The translations under genes and the position numbers were made by a program. Source: a bacterium (GTDB lineage Bacteria > Patescibacteriota > Minisyncoccia > Phycocordibacterales > Phycocordibacteraceae). Taken from it: 64,000 nt of DNA. The DNA lies in NCBI GenBank assembly GCA_023269085.1, contig JAHFML010000003.1, forward strand, positions 52,863 to 116,862. The letters run 5' to 3'. Shown piece by piece: positions 17,655-59,297 of the stretch. The number at the start of each line of letters is the position of its first letter. Within the stretch, counting starts at the first letter, position 1. A model generated the notes under the pieces. It made no database searches. It was not told the DNA's origin and was given only the letters and a program-made list of their open reading frames with translations.

Positions 17655-17754
17655 TTTGTGCATATCTGGTTTGCACGAGTGCGCTGGGGGCTTGCTTTTT
17701 TGCATAATGTGTGCTAGTCTAAAACCTAGATAGAACCTTGCCATTACGCACGTT

Positions 17755-17813
17755 CGCCACAGCAGAAAGGGGCTTTCGCCAGTCGGCAGGCTCGGCCGTT
17801 TTCTGCTGTGGCG
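17755..17813 (+). promoter_or_regulatory. Conserved 5' leader stem-loop of DGR-1 target gene (paralogue at 54000..54058)
   Basis: cgccacagcagaaa...tttctgctgtggcg 14-bp stem with an inner hairpin; ~85% identical to the copy upstream of the second DGR target, with compensatory changes in the inner stem. Confidence 0.7.
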
Positions 17814-17887
17814 AACCGAATATGTCGGTGCGTCGTACAGCACGCGACAATATCAGCAATGATAGTCGCACAAAAGGAGATCGCATC

Positions 17888-18604
17888 ATGTTGACCGACT
17901 CTCGCACCATCGCTCAAGCATACGGTCTTGGGCAAAAAGTTTTCTCCGCCGGCGAGGTTGCCGGTATGACGCCAGAGCTTTGGAATGCTCTGGCTCAAGA
18001 CGCGCGATTGTTTGCGCAGCTTCCGGCGATGATCCGCGGCTCTTTGGCGGATGCGTTGGCTGAACAGCGCGAACAGCAACCCAAGTTCTTCACTCACATC
18101 GCGACGACCAACCTTGCCGCGACTGTGGGCAAAAAGACGAGGAAGTGTTTCGTTGGCAGTCGCTATACGTATCGCGACAACGACTTCGACAACTGGCTTC
18201 CCGCCAATCAGCCATCCGCCGATGCCTGCGTTATCACAACGCTTGCTTCTGAGCAGGACTGGACGTTTGCCGAAGCCGCTGCCAAAGTCCTAGGTGTTGG
18301 CGCTGGCACGAACATCATCTTGCTCGGCAAAGCGCTCATCGAGAACGGTCATATCATGACCTTGGCGCAAGCTGAAGAAATGATCGAAGCCAACGAGCAC
18401 GGCGAGAACACCGGTATGCACCGCGATGGTCGGGGCAATTTCTTCTTCGTGGAAACGGAGGACGAAAATAATCCCGTCTCGGTTGGCGGCGTCGGTCGCG
18501 TTGAGCGCGCTTGGGTCGCGTACGTCGGCTGGCTCGTCAGCGGCGATCGCTGGGACGCTGGCGGTCGGCTCCTCGTCCGCAACTTGGACGCTTCGAAACT
18601 CTGA
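17888..18604 (+). CDS. DGR-1 target protein with C-terminal variable region
   Basis: SD AAAGGAGA 7 nt upstream of ATG 17888; C-terminal 36 codons form the VR. Confidence 0.75.
   Translation: MLTDSRTIAQAYGLGQKVFSAGEVAGMTPELWNALAQDARLFAQLPAMIRGSLADALAEQREQQPKFFTHIATTNLAATVGKKTRKCFVGSRYTYRDNDFDNWLPANQPSADACVITTLASEQDWTFAEAAAKVLGVGAGTNIILLGKALIENGHIMTLAQAEEMIEANEHGENTGMHRDGRGNFFFVETEDENNPVSVGGVGRVERAWVAYVGWLVSGDRWDAGGRLLVRNLDASKL
18475..18583 (+). repeat. DGR-1 variable repeat (VR)
   Basis: 109 nt aligning to the TR at 18863..18971; ~20 mismatches, 19 at TR adenines. Confidence 0.9.
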
Positions 18605-18862
18605 CACTTGGTCTCTTTCGAGTGTCCTCTAATTACTCCTCTCACGTATTACGCGTGCGAGGAGTATACTTTTGTCTGAACACGCTGGCATCTTCGGTTC
18701 CCAAACTTGAGGTGGCGAGGTTCCGGGTAAGTTCACCCGAAAAAAGAAATATAAGTTGGTGTGTCGCGCTGGTGGGCTCACGGCCCCGAATAAGATACAG
18801 CTCAGAGAGCATTCGATGGGTGGTAACCTTCGCTGGTGGTAAGGATGGTGCGACACACAAAG

Positions 18863-18971
18863 CGTCTCGGTTGGCAACGTCAATCGCGATGAGCGCGATT
18901 GGAACGCGAACGTCAACCGGCTCGACAACGACAATCGCTGGAACGCTGACAATCGGCTCCTCGTCCGCAAC
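18863..18971 (+). repeat. DGR-1 template repeat (TR)
   Basis: Intergenic; rich in AAC/AAT/GAC codons in the VR frame; all but one difference from the VR are at adenines. Confidence 0.9.
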
Positions 18972-18976
18972 AGATC

Positions 18977-19336
18977 TTACTTTCTCTCGCTTTCTGCGGG
19001 AGTTTTCTTTTCAAGATATGAACGCCATGCGACCAGCATTTTGCTTGCATCAACAAGTAGTCCGCTTATACGTACATGTTGAGCGTTCGTAATCGCATTA
19101 CTCTCCCACCCGACAAGTAGAAGGAATTTCGCCACATCGAGTCGGGCAATTGAGATGTTGAGCGCAGAAATCTTTTGCGCGGACGGAAGATATGCCGCAG
19201 AAAAGGCAGATTCAAGCGTGTCGAGAAGAGCCGTGTCAATTCTCGTACCGATAGTCTGTCGCTTCGTTTTGGCAACGTGAGGGAGTGCTGCTTGCCAAGC
19301 GAGATACGCCTCCTTCAATTTCGATACTACGGGCAC
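18977..19336 (-). CDS. avd: Accessory variability determinant (Avd) homologue, DGR-1
   Basis: 119-aa four-helix-bundle-type protein; resembles Bordetella phage Avd; homologous to the 55141..55509 ORF; GTG start. Confidence 0.7.
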   Translation of the reverse strand: MPVVSKLKEAYLAWQAALPHVAKTKRQTIGTRIDTALLDTLESAFSAAYLPSAQKISALNISIARLDVAKFLLLVGWESNAITNAQHVRISGLLVDASKMLVAWRSYLEKKTPAESERK

Positions 19337-19361
19337 GAGCTTTTCTTGTTGCGGAAACGTC

Positions 19362-19373
19362 GGGGGGGGGGGG
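19362..19373 (+). repeat. Homopolymeric G12 tract in the 50-nt divergent avd/RT intergenic region
   Basis: cgtcGGGGGGGGGGGGtacgttcagaagaATG; lies 14 nt upstream of the RT ATG and 26 nt upstream of the avd start. Confidence 0.95.
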
Positions 19374-19386
19374 TACGTTCAGAAGA

Positions 19387-20409
19387 ATGGATAGAATAAA
19401 TATCACTCATTCCTTCGACAATATCACCTTGGTAGATAATTTGCTCGACGCGTGGAAAGAATTCTTGCGCGGCAAACAGAAGAGGAAAGACGTGCAAGTA
19501 TTCGGATATAATCTAATTGAAAATATAAAAAGCATCCACGCGGACCTCATTTCCGGCATCTACCAGCACGGCCAGTACGAGCACTTCAAAATCAACGACC
19601 CAAAGCCCCGCGACATCCACAAAGCGAGCGTGCGCGACCGGCTCGTGCACCATGCCATTTATCGCATTCTCTACCCATTCTTCGATCGCACTTTTATCAG
19701 CGACTCCTACTCCTGCCGCAATGGGAAGGGGACGCACAAAGCCATGAATCGCTTTAGAGCCTTTGCGCGCAAAGTATCGAAGAATGACACGCGCACTGCT
19801 TGGGTCTTGAAGTGCGACATACGCAAGTTCTTCGCATCGATTGATCAGCCAACGCTCCTCGCCCTCTTGAGAGAACGCATTTCAGACGAACGCACCCTGC
19901 TACTCCTGCAACGAGTTATCGAGAGCTTCTCAAGTACAGCGAGAGGGAAAGGCCTCCCGCTCGGCAATCTCACCTCACAGCTCCTCGTGAACATCTACAT
20001 GAACGAGTCCGATCAATTCGTGAAGCATATACTCAAAGCGAAATACTATATCCGCTATGCCGATGACTTCGTATTCATCTCCCACGATCGCAGAGAACTC
20101 GAGGCGCTTCTGCCTCGTGTCGATGCCTTTTTGCGCGACCGGCTCAAGCTCGAATTGCACCCGAATAAAGTCTCAATCGCCACGCTCGCTTCGGGTATCG
20201 ACTTCTTGGGCTGGGTGCATTTCTCTGACCATCGCGTCTTGCGAGGCGCGACGAAGCGACGGATGTTGCGGAGGATTGAAGAGACGAGCGACAAGCCGGA
20301 GGTGATGAGCTCGTATCTGGGGATGCTAGAGCATGGAAATGGGTACAAGTTGCGAGAAGAGATTATGTATTTGCATACACTCACCGAGGCGCGTACCATG
20401 GTGGCATGA
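19387..20409 (+). CDS. DGR-type reverse transcriptase, DGR-1
   Basis: RT motifs including YADD and the DGR-characteristic LGNLTSQ (motif 4, in place of the group II QGxxxSP); start could alternatively be the upstream in-frame ATG at 19285. Confidence 0.9.
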   Translation: MDRINITHSFDNITLVDNLLDAWKEFLRGKQKRKDVQVFGYNLIENIKSIHADLISGIYQHGQYEHFKINDPKPRDIHKASVRDRLVHHAIYRILYPFFDRTFISDSYSCRNGKGTHKAMNRFRAFARKVSKNDTRTAWVLKCDIRKFFASIDQPTLLALLRERISDERTLLLLQRVIESFSSTARGKGLPLGNLTSQLLVNIYMNESDQFVKHILKAKYYIRYADDFVFISHDRRELEALLPRVDAFLRDRLKLELHPNKVSIATLASGIDFLGWVHFSDHRVLRGATKRRMLRRIEETSDKPEVMSSYLGMLEHGNGYKLREEIMYLHTLTEARTMVA

Positions 20410-22740: not shown

Positions 22741-23783
22741 TCCCCTTTGAAATGCAATTGCTCTAACATGGAGCAATATGCAAAAGCGCCAAGAATTCAA
22801 ACATTTACAACAGAAGGACAGAGACCGTATTCATGATCTGTATCTGTTCGGCCACAGCCAGAAAGGCATCGCGGAAGTACTCGGGGTGAGCCCGGGCACC
22901 ATCTCGCGAGAACTGAAGCGGTATGACAAACGCACCTGGCGGTACTCCGCCACGAGAGCGCAAGAGGACGCAGAGCTGAAGCGTCTGCACAGCAAGCGCC
23001 CCGGCATGAAGATTGCCGAGAACCACGCACTGCGCCAGCAGGTCATTCAAGAACTAAAGAAACTCCGTTCCCCAGACGAGATTGCGGGACGCATGAAGAA
23101 AGAGGGAGTGTCACCACGAGTCGGCAAGAACGCTATATACAAATGGCTGTACAGCGAGGACGGCAAAGCATACTGTCGGTATCTCTGCACCAAACGAACC
23201 AAACCAAGAGGGCGTCGGTACCTTGAGGCACGTGTCCTCATTCCCGATCGAAAGTCCCACAGAACAAGGCCGGATTCCCCAGGGCTCATCCATACCGAAG
23301 GAGACTTGTTCGTATCACCACAAAAGTCAGGATCAACTGTATGTGGCCTTCTCGTGGTGGAAAAAGAGAGCAAGCTATACTCGGGTGCGCTCATTTCAAA
23401 CAAGAGCGCCGCGTTCATCGTACCCGCAATGCGACGAGCAACCCGAGCCGTCAGTGCAGACACCTGTACGCTCGACAATGGCATTGAGAACATCTGCCAT
23501 CGAAACTTCGACGTGGACACCTACTTCTGCGACCCAGGGACACCGACCCAGAAGCCGGATGTTGAGGGGTCAATCGGGCTCGTACGTCGCTGGTTCCTGC
23601 CAAAAGGAACTGACCTGTCCACCGTCTCCAATGAGACATACCAGTCGCAACTGCACCTGCTGAATCACAAGTATCGGAGGTCGCTCGGATACCGGAGTGC
23701 GTATGAAGACGCCCTTGAGCGAGGTATCATCAAACGAGTGCCGAGGGTTTCATTACAAATGGCGATTGCATTTCGCTAGGGAA
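22741..23783. mobile_element. IS30-family insertion sequence (~1.04 kb)
   Basis: Imperfect terminal IRs (CCCTTTGAAATGCAATTGC ... GCGATTGCATTTCGCTAGGG) bracket a single transposase ORF. Confidence 0.75.
22778..23779 (+). CDS. IS30-family DDE transposase
   Basis: N-terminal HTH (HSQKGIAEVLGVSPGTISRELKR), C-terminal DDE-type catalytic domain; ORF ends inside the right IR. Confidence 0.85.
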   Translation: MQKRQEFKHLQQKDRDRIHDLYLFGHSQKGIAEVLGVSPGTISRELKRYDKRTWRYSATRAQEDAELKRLHSKRPGMKIAENHALRQQVIQELKKLRSPDEIAGRMKKEGVSPRVGKNAIYKWLYSEDGKAYCRYLCTKRTKPRGRRYLEARVLIPDRKSHRTRPDSPGLIHTEGDLFVSPQKSGSTVCGLLVVEKESKLYSGALISNKSAAFIVPAMRRATRAVSADTCTLDNGIENICHRNFDVDTYFCDPGTPTQKPDVEGSIGLVRRWFLPKGTDLSTVSNETYQSQLHLLNHKYRRSLGYRSAYEDALERGIIKRVPRVSLQMAIAFR

Positions 23784-40406: not shown

Positions 40407-40419
40407 TCGGGGGGGGGGG
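40407..40419 (+). repeat. Homopolymeric G13 tract 40 nt upstream of the surface-protein gene
   Basis: cctcGGGGGGGGGGGGGtacgctacag; flanks closely resemble the G12 tract region of DGR-1 (cgtcG12tacgttcag). Confidence 0.95.
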
Positions 40420-40459
40420 GGTACGCTACAGGTATATCCACCGCGCATAACCCATACCC

Positions 40460-41374
40460 ATGAAAGAACTAACTCGTTCAACGCTCGTCGCCATCGTCGC
40501 CTCATCGCTCTCCCTCCTCGCCTTCTACGCGGTGAGCGCTGGCGCACAATCAGCCTGGACTCCAGCTCCAGCTAACGCTCCCTCAGGCAACGTGGCAGGC
40601 CCCCTCACCACGGGCGCAACCGGTCAGAGCAAAGCCGGTAACCTCATGCTCAACACCGACGGCACCCTCGCCAACGGCCTCATCGTCGCGAATGGGAATG
40701 TGGGTATTGGGACGGTGGCGCCATACTTGCCACTCGTCGTTTATAGTTCGTCAGCCAATGGTTCTGCTGTAGCGCTTGACAGACCGGCTGGCTTGGCTGG
40801 GATGTATCAGGTAAGAACAAACGGATCTCCTCGATGGGTTTTTGGTGCAGACCAAACAACAGAGAGTGGCTCGAATTCCGGATCAAACTTTCGAATTATC
40901 GGGTATAATGATGACGGTCTTGGATTAAATAACGCATTAACAATAAATAGATCCTCCGGCAACGTCGGTATTGGAACGACGAATCCGAACGTCTCGAAGG
41001 GGGCTGGCGGGTATGTCGACGCCAAAGACGTCTATCTCCGTGACGCCGGGAAGTGGGCGAGTGAGGTTGGTGGGAGTGGGAGTATCGTAGCAGGATGCGC
41101 AAAAAATAGGAGAGCAGTTGATTTTTGCGGAAGAGTTAACAACAACCCAGCAGGACTAATCGCTGATGTTTGTTGGGGAGGCGCATCATTTACTACTATT
41201 GAAATAGGCACCCTCGGAGCGGATTGGGGAGCGAGTACCGTTTATACGACAAAGACATTTTCTTGCCCGAGCGGATCCACTGTTCGACTCGTTGGGACTA
41301 TGGGCGAAGGCTGTGGGAGTAACTCATATTCGTCGTCTAGCGTATCACTGGATACCTTTTTCTGTATCAAATAA
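40460..41374 (+). CDS. Secreted Gly/Asn-rich repeat protein (fibre/surface-protein-like)
   Basis: Signal peptide (LVAIVASSLSLLAFYAVSAGAQS); repeated NGNVGIGT / SGNVGIGTTNP motifs; C-terminal Cys-rich region. Confidence 0.6.
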   Translation: MKELTRSTLVAIVASSLSLLAFYAVSAGAQSAWTPAPANAPSGNVAGPLTTGATGQSKAGNLMLNTDGTLANGLIVANGNVGIGTVAPYLPLVVYSSSANGSAVALDRPAGLAGMYQVRTNGSPRWVFGADQTTESGSNSGSNFRIIGYNDDGLGLNNALTINRSSGNVGIGTTNPNVSKGAGGYVDAKDVYLRDAGKWASEVGGSGSIVAGCAKNRRAVDFCGRVNNNPAGLIADVCWGGASFTTIEIGTLGADWGASTVYTTKTFSCPSGSTVRLVGTMGEGCGSNSYSSSSVSLDTFFCIK

Positions 41375-51913: not shown

Positions 51914-53956
<2,043 letters not shown>

Positions 53957-53999: not shown

Positions 54000-54058
54000 C
54001 GCCACAGCAGAAAGGGGCTTCCGCCAACCGGCGGACTAGGCCGTTTTCTGCTGTGGCG
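54000..54058 (+). promoter_or_regulatory. Conserved 5' leader stem-loop of DGR-2 target gene
   Basis: cgccacagcagaaa...tttctgctgtggcg; paralogue of 17755..17813. Confidence 0.7.
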
Positions 54059-54120
54059 AACCGAATAGGTACGCTTGAACAGCACTGTAAAAACGCTCTT
54101 CCCAAGCCAAGGAGAAAGTC

Positions 54121-54714
54121 ATGAGCGCACAACAGAAGCAAATCACGAAACTAGTGGCCGCTCTGGTCGAGTTTTCTGACCAGTTCGGCCAGATGTCGAC
54201 CGAGGATTGCCAATGGGCAATCCAAAACACGAAAGCGGCAATCGGCCTCTTCGTAGAGGCGGTGAGGAATCGCCCGATAGCAGCTCTGGTCGGGTTGCCA
54301 GAAGGCACGGTCATCCGTCGCGTGAAGGTCGACCGCTCGCATTCTCCGCAGAAAATGGTGAACGCGACCGGCCGTAGGCAGTACATCGACAAGGACATCC
54401 TCGCGACGATGCCTTTGGGCGAAGGCGACGAGGTGGATGTGTACTTCGTACCGACCAAGCGCTTCGTTTTGGCAAGTGAGGTCTCGGCGTTTCTCGCGCA
54501 GTATGGTCTCGTTCCCGACCCGCGCGCGCAAACGGCGGTGAACGAAGCCGATCCGACCTTCGCCGACGACCATCCGAACGGAACGCAATGGAGCGATTTT
54601 TGCTACCTGACGTTCTACCGCTGGTATGACGAGCGGGACGTGTACTGCAACCGCGACGACCGCGTCTGGCGCGGCTATTGGTTCCTCTCGGGTGTCCCGA
54701 CTCCCCGCAAGTAA
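54121..54714 (+). CDS. DGR-2 target protein with C-terminal variable region
   Basis: SD AAGGAGA 5 nt upstream; VR occupies the last ~36 codons (…CYLTFYRWYDERDVYCNRDDRVWRGYWFLSGVPTPRK). Confidence 0.75.
   Translation: MSAQQKQITKLVAALVEFSDQFGQMSTEDCQWAIQNTKAAIGLFVEAVRNRPIAALVGLPEGTVIRRVKVDRSHSPQKMVNATGRRQYIDKDILATMPLGEGDEVDVYFVPTKRFVLASEVSAFLAQYGLVPDPRAQTAVNEADPTFADDHPNGTQWSDFCYLTFYRWYDERDVYCNRDDRVWRGYWFLSGVPTPRK
54601..54707 (+). repeat. DGR-2 variable repeat (VR)
   Basis: 107 nt aligning to 55025..55131; ~14 mismatches, all at TR adenines. Confidence 0.9.
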
Positions 54715-54763
54715 GTCCTCGGGTCTTTGAGTATAAGAACTCTTTAGACCCTTAACCCTTTGT

Positions 54764-54792
54764 GCGCCGCTTTCCCAAGCGGCGCATTTTGT
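54764..54792 (+). terminator. Rho-independent terminator after DGR-2 target
   Basis: gcgccgc tttcccaa gcggcgc + attttgt. Confidence 0.7.
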
Positions 54793-55024
54793 ATATGATG
54801 CAAATGGTAGTAGGCGAATACGGAAGCGATTACGGTTTCTTCCTGCCGAATCCAGTATCCGTACGTTGAGAACGTGTGCGATTACGGTTGCATATGGAGG
54901 ATGTACGCAGAAACTTCAAAAAATGAAGATACTTGGTGTGAAGTGCTGGCGCATTACCGATGCCGAATACGATTCAACCTTGAGAATACTCGATGGGTGG
55001 TGGCACAGATGGCGCTCCATACAT

Positions 55025-55131
55025 TGCTACCTGACGTTCAACCGCTGGAATGACGAGCGGAACGTGAACTGCAACCGCAACGACAACGACTGGAACGACA
55101 ATTGGTTCCTCTCGGGTGTCCCGACTCCCCG
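55025..55131 (+). repeat. DGR-2 template repeat (TR)
   Basis: AAC-rich in VR frame (…NRWNDERNVNCNRNDNDWNDNWF…); intergenic. Confidence 0.9.
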
Positions 55132-55140
55132 TAACTCTCT

Positions 55141-55509
55141 TCATTTCTCGCCCGAACCTCTATGTTCGGGCGAGTTTTGTTTAACGAGCTGCCCATTCCA
55201 TCCACCAAGCATTCTCCCGACCTCCTCAAGTGGCATCGAGAGAGCGATGTATTTCTTCGTATCGAGCGATTTGGTCTCCCAGAGGATGAGTAAGAATATT
55301 TTTAGCGTATCGAGTTTACGAATAGCGAGACGCACCCACGGCTGTTTCTCAGTTTTTGAGAGAAAGCTTGCACTTGCGACTGCTTCAATCAACGCAACGA
55401 ATTCCGCGTCAACTGTTCCACCGAGCGTGTGCCGATGGGTCTTCGGTATGGTTTGATAAAATCCATACCATATAATATACGCATGCTTAATACGCTCGAG
55501 CACCGGCAA
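55141..55509 (-). CDS. avd: Avd homologue, DGR-2
   Basis: 122 aa; ...LSMPLEEVGRMLGGWNGQLVKQ resembles the Avd C-terminus; TTG start. Confidence 0.7.
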   Translation of the reverse strand: MPVLERIKHAYIIWYGFYQTIPKTHRHTLGGTVDAEFVALIEAVASASFLSKTEKQPWVRLAIRKLDTLKIFLLILWETKSLDTKKYIALSMPLEEVGRMLGGWNGQLVKQNSPEHRGSGEK

Positions 55510-55516
55510 GAGCCTC

Positions 55517-55526
55517 GGGGGGGGGG
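55517..55526 (+). repeat. Homopolymeric G10 tract between divergent avd-2 and RT-2
   Basis: agcctcGGGGGGGGGGagcttcgaag; 8 nt upstream of avd-2 start. Confidence 0.95.
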
Positions 55527-55606
55527 AGCTTCGAAGAATCGAATTCGTTCATACCTATGAGCATATCATCTCGATCGAGAACCTTCTCGACGCGTGGCGA
55601 GAATTC

Positions 55607-56542
55607 GTGAGAGGGAAGAAGAAGCGTGCGGATGTGCAAGAGTTCGAGAGAGACTTGATGCAAAATGTCATATCGTTGCATCGTTATCTCGTGTCTGGCG
55701 CGTACCAGCACGGCCAGTACGAGCGCTTCAAAATCAACGACCCCAAGCCTCGCGACATCCACAAAGCGAGCGTGCGCGATCGGCTCGTGCACCATGCCAT
55801 CTATCGCATTCTATATCCATTCTTCGACCGCACTTTCATCAGCGACTCCTATTCCTGCCGCAATGGGAAGGGAACGCACAGAGCCATGAATCGCTTTAGA
55901 GCCTTTGCGCGCAAAGTATCGAAGAATGACACGCGCACTGCTTGGGTCTTGAAGTGCGACATACGCAAGTTCTTCGCCTCGATTGATCAGTCAACGCTCC
56001 TCGTCATCTTGAAGAGACGCATAACAGACGAACGCACGCTGACACTTCTGCAACGAGTTATCGAGAGCTTCCGCACACCCTGTGCAACACCTGGTGTTGC
56101 ACAAAAAGGCCTCCCGCTTGGCAACCTTACCTCACAACTCCTCGTGAACATCTACATGAACGAGTTCGATCAATTCGTGAAGCACGCGCTCAAAGCAAGA
56201 TACTATCTCCGCTATGCCGATGACTTCGTATTCATCTCTCACGACCGCAGAGAGCTCGAGGCGCTTCTGCCTCGGGTCGATGCCTTTTTGCGCGACCGGC
56301 TCAAGCTCGAACTGCATCCAGACAAAGTCTCAATCGCCACGCTCGCTTCGGGTATCGACTTCTTGGGCTGGGTGCATTTCTCTGACCATCGCGTTGTGCG
56401 AGGCGCGACGAAGCGGCGGATGTTGCGGAGGATTGAAGAGATGGGTGGCAAGCCAGAGGTGGTGAGCTCGTATCTGGGGATGCTCTCGCACGGGAACGCG
56501 TACCGGCTTGTTGCTCATATTTCAGAACAGAAGGAAAAGTGA
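55607..56542 (+). CDS. DGR-type reverse transcriptase, DGR-2
   Basis: ~85% identical to RT-1; YADD and LGNLTSQ motifs; no ATG equivalent to RT-1 Met1 (ATG->ATC), so the true N-terminus is unclear. Confidence 0.85.
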   Translation: MRGKKKRADVQEFERDLMQNVISLHRYLVSGAYQHGQYERFKINDPKPRDIHKASVRDRLVHHAIYRILYPFFDRTFISDSYSCRNGKGTHRAMNRFRAFARKVSKNDTRTAWVLKCDIRKFFASIDQSTLLVILKRRITDERTLTLLQRVIESFRTPCATPGVAQKGLPLGNLTSQLLVNIYMNEFDQFVKHALKARYYLRYADDFVFISHDRRELEALLPRVDAFLRDRLKLELHPDKVSIATLASGIDFLGWVHFSDHRVVRGATKRRMLRRIEEMGGKPEVVSSYLGMLSHGNAYRLVAHISEQKEK

Positions 56543-58932: not shown

Positions 58933-59007
58933 GTTGCAAAGCGATTGAGAAGCGGTATAGTGTACCTATCGCAGAGACGCAGGGTCTCTTGCGGTTATGA
59001 GAATATA

Positions 59008-59297
59008 GCGGGGTAGAGGAGAGGTACCTCGGGAGGCTTGAGTTATTCGGGCGTGCGCGCGAGCAATTGCGCGTAAGATCATCTGTCAAATTCGGCGAAC
59101 CCCTCTCGCGAAAACGAAAGGCAACACCGAGCCAAGCTTTGCGAATAATCGCAAGGAAGGTGTAGAGACTAGACGGCAGACATCCTGAGCGTAGTCGAAG
59201 GATGAAGGCATAGTCCAGACCACAAACGAAAGGCAATGAAAATTGTAGTGGTAAGCATAACCTCCAGACCCTGGTTCGATTCCAGGCCCCGCAACAA
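59008..59297 (+). ncRNA. ssrA: Candidate tmRNA-like RNA (tRNA-like T-arm plus acceptor-like 3' end); identity uncertain
   Basis: 3' end ...CCTGG-TTCGATT-CCAGG-CCCCGCA-A mimics T-arm plus acceptor strand; complementary GCGGGG ~285 nt upstream; 410-nt ORF-free interval; followed by a strong terminator; tag ORF not confidently identified. Confidence 0.4.

Follow-up and report, generated by a model that had tools for sequence, protein, structure and literature searches.

Evidence for a complete chromosomal diversity-generating retroelement with a structured template RNA in a Paceibacteria-like member of the Patescibacteria

Diversity-generating retroelements (DGRs) of the architecture considered here are already well documented in bacteria of the candidate phyla radiation (CPR, or Patescibacteria). 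In the survey of Wu et al. 2018 (PMC5758913), architecture B3 is written TR-(avd)-RT, where TR is the template region, RT the reverse transcriptase and the parentheses denote the reverse strand, and the CPR set described there comprises mostly single targets of unknown fold. Roux et al. 2021 (PMC8144416) reported a DGR clade 2 that is restricted to Patescibacteria and encoded by cells rather than viruses, with targets typically lacking transmembrane or other recognisable domains. Here we describe DGR-1, located at 17755-20409 of a 64,000-nt stretch of contig JAHFML010000003.1 (assembly GCA_023269085.1, forward-strand positions 52,863 to 116,862; hereafter the window), which is very probably a complete chromosomal DGR of a Paceibacteria-like CPR/Patescibacteria bacterium.

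Compared by these published descriptions, DGR-1 is a further member of the CPR B3 DGRs and fits in every respect examined. It resembles the cellular DGRs of clade 2/B3 in host group, in chromosomal location, in the reverse-strand avd gene between TR and RT, and in having a single adjacent target without a transmembrane or known domain, and we found no defining difference from them. The complete set of target with variable region, TR, avd and RT that had been proposed from the sequence alone is present, with all open reading frames (ORFs) intact:

17888-18604, plus strand: target (variable protein) gene, 238 aa, without signal peptide or transmembrane segment
18475-18583, plus strand: variable region (VR), comprising the final 36 codons of the target that are open to diversification, from a repeat finder and ungapped alignment
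18565-18583, plus strand: VR 3' end resembling an initiation of mutagenic homing (IMH) site, GC-rich, 19 nt, the same as the TR 3' end at 18953-18971
18863-18971, plus strand: TR, with 26 adenines, from the same repeat finder and alignment
18977-19336, minus strand: avd accessory gene, 119 aa, encoding a predicted four-helix bundle, antisense to target, TR and RT
19387-20409, plus strand: DGR reverse transcriptase, 340 aa, with YADD and LGNLTSQ motifs (RVT_1, 3e-24)

A repeat finder run over 16-22 kb of the window returned a single long direct repeat of 109 nt and 82% identity, at exactly the two positions given by the sequence-only reading, an earlier model annotation made without database searches. 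Ungapped comparison yields 20 mismatches, 19 of which fall at TR adenines (14 A>G, 4 A>T and 1 A>C; hypergeometric p=1.5e-14), the sole exception being a C>T at TR position 18918. This tabulation by TR base, which that reading had recommended as a check, reproduces its approximate count together with the lone C to T change, and the adenine enrichment on which it had staked the DGR call is pronounced. Altogether 19 of the 26 TR adenines are altered in the VR, all changes lie in codon position 1 or 2 of ORF 17888-18604, and no stop codon is created. Homology breaks off sharply at both flanks, VR and TR parting directly after the shared 19-nt IMH-like end, with the last mismatch at 18564. In the VR frame the TR is rich in asparagine codons, as had been noted (AAC or AAT at 10 of 36 codons), and the VR peptide quoted at the time is correct. 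With adenines treated as wild, no third copy of the TR was found in the window.

The same pattern recurs in related genomes, from which we collected 13 further distinct cassettes (L001, L002, L005, L007, L010, L011 and L266-L272) with the order target(+), TR(+), avd(-), RT(+). Together with DGR-1 and a second element of the window, DGR-2, these make 15 cassettes, in which 223 of the 226 pooled VR/TR mismatches are at TR adenines. The family has in common a leader RNA 5' of the TR, a terminator after the TR and a G tract before the RT gene. In an alignment of 33 target homologues, the VR columns derived from TR codons that carry an A in their first or second position show a mean entropy of 2.56 bits, compared with 0.61 bits for other VR columns (p=3e-6); the single exception to this hypervariability is the terminal AAC codon within the IMH-like end, which never varied among the 33. 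The 98 target homologues that were found are about 230 aa long and their named sources are Paceibacteria, Minisyncoccia, Kaiserbacteria or Zambryskibacteria, all CPR/Patescibacteria. We regard DGR-1 as chromosomal because its neighbours are housekeeping genes (for a sigma factor, VKOR and endonuclease III), and the wider window encodes ligA, gatCA and ribosomal proteins.

The start of the RT is best set at ATG 19387, which is conserved in its homologues, and the protein contains both motifs previously reported for it, YADD (YxDD) and the DGR-specific LGNLTSQ ([LIV]GxxxSQ in motif 4). Against all PDB sequences its top match is the Bordetella RT, bRT (8ub7_A, 8e-47), with the best group II intron RT at 5e-18, and it matches PHROG 1423 at 2e-109; identity to RTs from phage records is at most 38%. 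Based on these motifs and the PDB sequence match we assign the enzyme to the DGR clade, in agreement with what the sequence-only reading had expected of such a search. The 119-aa ORF between TR and RT, likened to a four-helix-bundle Avd by the same reading, was correctly identified, with the correction that it lies on the minus strand. It matches NCBIfam DivGenRetAVD (3.4e-8), Pfam bAvd (8e-4) and the PHROG family "Avd protein of DGR" (2e-7), all below curated cut-offs. Since phmmer found no match among PDB sequences, structure comparison was needed, and an AlphaFold model built with 25 homologues has four helices (predicted local distance difference test score, pLDDT, 91.6). Sequence profiles and predicted structure together confirm the protein as Avd.

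The target protein has no Pfam, NCBIfam or PHROG match, including none to Pfam FGE-sulfatase or DUF1566, and comparing the profile of its family with PDB sequences gave only noise. A structure model built from 34 sequences has a pLDDT of 87 overall and of >95 across residues 68-238. This portion is predicted to adopt a distant C-type-lectin/FGE-like fold, and the N-terminal 65 residues constitute a poorly conserved helical region. The best fold matches are to TvpA and the FGE/CLec family, and they point weakly to such a fold: sequence identity to TvpA is 13%, and Foldseek found nothing in the PDB with E <0.4. The fold prediction recommended by the earlier reading thus hints at a distant lectin-type relationship. 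Compared with the TvpA/FGE-type C-type-lectin proteins of Treponema denticola, the target differs in this low identity, in the helical N-terminal region and in lacking a lipoprotein signal. The previously noted absence of a signal peptide stands, no hydrophobic segment being found either, and the target looks like a cytoplasmic or non-classically exported protein.

DGR-1 also contains a series of plus-strand elements at the RNA level or in promoter position:

17752-17816, plus strand: long hairpin in the presumed 5' untranslated region (UTR) of the target gene, an inverted repeat with 22-nt arms that are 91% complementary
18634-18666, plus strand: hairpin followed by a U-rich tail (GTATACTTTTG), 3' of the target stop codon (-19.9 kcal/mol, z -5.5)
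18678-18862, plus strand: conserved structured RNA leader directly 5' of the TR, from alignments, covariance model R1 and covariation
18984-19012, plus strand: stem-loop and U-tract directly 3' of the TR, from a terminator scan (-11 kcal/mol, z -3.5)
19362-19373, plus strand: G12 homopolymer in the gap that separates the start codons of the divergent avd and RT genes, ending 13 nt upstream of the RT ATG

The leader of about 185 nt comprises two 5' hairpins, an A-rich strand and a long-range helix of 12-14 bp (18759-18770 with 18847-18858), which closes a two-hairpin domain and joins a strand ending 5 nt before the TR to a partner about 80 nt further upstream. Covariance model R1, which covers the core domain of the leader only, matches 21 sites in the collected loci, each directly upstream of a TR, including that of DGR-2. 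In the alignment fitted to R1, 96.4% of cells are paired and 15 of 23 pairs show compensatory changes; a MAFFT alignment of 14 full-length RNAs has 59 pairs, 96.2% paired, with compensatory changes in 25. The covariation score of the latter alignment is 0.313, compared with 0.180 in shuffles (0 of 500 as high) and <=0.14 in slid controls. Neither the leader nor the upstream hairpin at 17752-17816 matches an Rfam family at gathering or relaxed thresholds. Upstream of the leader there is a conserved TATACT without a convincing -35 element, so that a promoter of its own and read-through from the target gene are both candidates for the 5' end of the TR RNA.

On the other side of the TR, the stem-loop at 18984-19012 begins 12 nt past the TR, within the last codons of the antisense avd ORF, and is conserved with its U-tract in all cassettes, with compensatory changes. 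It is a predicted terminator of the TR RNA and a candidate Avd-binding stem-loop. RNAalifold pairs the A-rich tract of the leader with the U-tail after the TR over 7 bp, where covariation is minimal, and this pairing is only a suggestion. A Bordetella-like primer formed by the invariant GUUGG 5' of the long helix and the CAAC at the TR 3' end was considered and found unsupported, since no more than 3-4 bp can form and the pairing is lost, with no compensatory change, in cassettes that end in CUAC.

Two further hairpins flank the target gene. The one in its presumed 5' UTR folds at -46.2 kcal/mol (z -7.5) and recurs upstream of the DGR-2 target (54000-54064) and of the targets in L268 and L269; in these four cassettes it spans 65-68 nt (-46 and -48 kcal/mol for the two copies in the window), the stem (GCCAYAGCAGAAA/TTTCTGCTGTGGC) being conserved and the loop variable. 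Cassettes lacking this hairpin have another conserved 5' UTR. The hairpin after the target stop codon is kept in all related cassettes, the sequence of its stem changing between them, and is an intrinsic terminator and/or the inverted repeat known downstream of the IMH in other DGRs.

We propose that DGR-1 operates by mutagenic retrohoming. A plus-strand RNA comprising the structured leader, the 109-nt TR and the 3' stem-loop/terminator would be produced, and the RT, acting with Avd, would copy the TR into cDNA while misincorporating opposite template adenines. This cDNA would then take the place of the homologous VR, with which the gene for the 238-aa target ends, the shared GC-rich 19-nt IMH-like end setting the boundary, and up to 15 Asn/Asp/Glu-type codons could thereby be recoded in what is predicted to be the ligand-binding face of a C-type-lectin-like domain. 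Ordinary mutagenic retrohoming is the best-supported explanation of the locus, and we favour the DGR reading because the adenine bias of the repeat pair extends over the cassettes and coincides with hypervariable columns at A-bearing codons, the RT is closest to that of the Bordetella DGR, Avd is confirmed, the best fold matches of the target are TvpA and the FGE/CLec family, the gene order recurs with ORFs intact, the RNA adjacent to the TR covaries, and the published B3/CPR descriptions match.

The layout of the RNA differs, however, from the Bordetella model. There, the priming adenosine comes from a 140-nt spacer on the 3' side of the TR, and the cPRT-stop duplex arises from base pairing of this spacer with a segment that precedes the TR (Handa et al., bioRxiv 10.1101/2023.10.23.563531). 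Relative to the DGR of Bordetella phage BPP-1 (mtd-avd-TR-brt), DGR-1 resides in a cell rather than a phage, its avd is antisense and downstream of the TR, its RT is no more than 38% identical to phage RTs, and the helix abutting the TR 5' end pairs with further-upstream rather than downstream sequence. Three observations weigh against our interpretation. First, no downstream spacer with a Bordetella-like priming site is evident 3' of the TR, which is followed not by ~140 nt of spacer but by only a 19-nt stem-loop, possibly Avd-binding, and a U-tract. Second, IMH and its TR counterpart IMH*, unlike those of BPP-1, are identical over 19 nt and their flanks differ, so that any distinction between donor and recipient would have to reside in these flanks; cases with identical IMH ends are already found in Wu et al. 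(PMC5758913). Third, L258, the sole other assembly that contains the locus, matches it at 100% identity over 1977 nt, VR included.

Before alternatives are considered, the G12 tract requires description. It is flanked by a -35-like TTGCGG and a -10-like TACGTT, and a G tract is found in 14 of the 15 distinct cassettes (G12 in DGR-1, G10 in DGR-2, range G9-G17), ending exactly 13 nt upstream of the RT ATG in 12 of them; across the family the flanks are TTGCGR, and TACGTT or TAGATT. A sigma-70-type reading is reasonable because the target genes of relatives have clear TTGAC-N17-TATAAT promoters. On these sequence patterns, the tract would form part of a promoter spacer that measures 16-19 nt in most cassettes, as against 24 nt in L266, and would leave the RT mRNA with almost no leader. 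A reading as a promoter of the extracytoplasmic function (ECF) sigma type (GAAAC-N17-CGTT) was rejected, as GAAAC is not conserved in relatives. A third homopolymer, G13 at 40409-40421, has the same TC-G(n)-TACGYT context as both DGR tracts; it follows the rplB terminator and has a signal-peptide-like ORF (40460-41374) 39 nt downstream of it, which suggests that the G-tract promoter is of a genome-wide type and not a DGR-specific element.

The alternative that survives best is that DGR-1 is a relic or has been switched off, its VR having been diversified in the past and its target no longer being mutated in this strain. The identity of the VR in L258 fits such an element, but L258 may stem from the same sample, in which case the identity says little. 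Were the G tract a promoter spacer, its length of G12 would give 19 nt, compared with 16-18 nt in most relatives. Among relatives, L008 (TR internally deleted) and L263 (TR truncated 3') both appear decayed and have no RT, and the sister element DGR-2 has ATC (55538) at the position of the relatives' ATG start. In DGR-1, by contrast, the three genes, the TR and all of the conserved RNA helices are intact, and the VR departs from the TR at 19 of 26 adenines with no stop codon arising. As genes and RNA elements are intact and diversification is heavy and stop-free, we would argue that DGR-1 is functional, and we consider a relic decidedly unlikely. The other alternative, an RT of group II intron, retron or defence type beside an ordinary duplication with a chance A bias, is effectively refuted: the top NCBIfam match is indeed group_II_RT_mat (3.9e-43), but it covers the RT part only, at 148 bits against a cut-off of 300, Drt and retron models score weaker still and all fall far under curated cut-offs, the bRT match surpasses that of every intron RT by 29 orders of magnitude, the protein stops ~58 aa past the palm/thumb region with neither a maturase nor an endonuclease domain, no group II intron or retron RNA was found in Rfam at gathering or relaxed thresholds, the significant A bias recurs in 15 cassettes, and an avd gene is adjacent. 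The intron- or retron-type RT that the sequence-only reading had named as fatal to its call is thus not what is seen.

Within the retrohoming interpretation, the leader and the G tract each lend themselves to a more speculative proposal, which we regard as possible but doubtful. The TR RNA would be a self-contained molecule of ~335 nt that is circularly permuted relative to that of Bordetella: the structure that positions the proteins may lie 5' of the TR, where the equivalent Bordetella spacer lies 3'. One segment of the leader may pair on one side with the strand that adjoins the 5' end of the TR and on the other, via the A-rich tract, with the 3' U-tail, enclosing the TR as a loop. The observed layout is compatible with a permuted RNA of the same three-dimensional arrangement as in Bordetella. 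Independently of this, the G9-G17 tract between TTGCGR and TACGTT may act as a slippage-prone spacer, making RT expression, and hence hypermutation, phase-variable; in the literature that was searched, no paper tied DGRs to homopolymer switching.

DGR-2 (about 54000-56542) has the same layout as DGR-1:

54121-54714, plus strand: target gene
about 54601-54708: VR
about 55025-55132: TR, with 12 of 12 mismatches at TR adenines
55141-55509, minus strand: avd
55517-55526: G10 tract
end at 56542: RT gene

It occupies a site between ligA and gatC that is also the site of the L267 and L268 cassettes and of a lone target gene in L261. No TTGCGR element accompanies its RT gene. The RT genes of the two elements are 90% identical at the DNA level over ~780 nt, and their targets, TRs and Avd proteins are unrelated or only 30% identical. 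The near-identity is confined to the central and 3' parts of the RT genes (19561-20327 and 55703-56484), with differing 5' ends and C-terminal tails, a pattern that suggests gene conversion between the cassettes. The same near-identical stretch is a breakpoint of short-read assemblies: the L258 contig stops at 19769 in the RT gene, and its other end is within the 5' UTR hairpin repeat.

Modules of target, leader and TR without adjacent avd or RT occur in related genomes at L015, L263/L264 and L008. L015, on the same Zambryskibacteria contig as L011, has a diversified VR with 16 A-only mismatches and presumably depends on the RT of L011, acting in trans. Metagenome and viral contigs scanned for exact 14-mers (GAACACGCTGGCAT) gave 240 loci, all of which proved by blastn to be chance matches and added no cassettes. 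Elsewhere in the window, an ORF at 22778-23779, 2.4 kb downstream of DGR-1, has an N-terminal HTH_38 domain and resembles IS30-family transposases, with no Pfam match to a transposase domain at E <0.001. A tRNA gene at 59007-59295 contains a group I intron (59030-59235, Rfam RF00028, 56 bits); it was missed by standard ARAGORN and reported in intron mode as tRNA-Ser(tga) with a 217-nt intron, an identity that varies with the splice boundaries chosen.

As a DGR, DGR-1 is one more example, or with DGR-2 two, among tens of thousands catalogued, and its recognition serves mainly the correct annotation of CPR genomes. The leader RNA and the G tract are the sole parts that might be new, judging by the published catalogue descriptions. 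Non-membrane targets of CPR DGRs are an unexplained class, of which the small soluble target described here, with 238 aa and a model of high confidence, is a tractable example. The conserved homopolymer at the putative RT promoter hints that hypermutation could be turned on and off in a simple way, and a compact template RNA supported by covariation and structured on the opposite side of the TR from that of Bordetella would probe the generality of the priming and stop mechanism published for that element.

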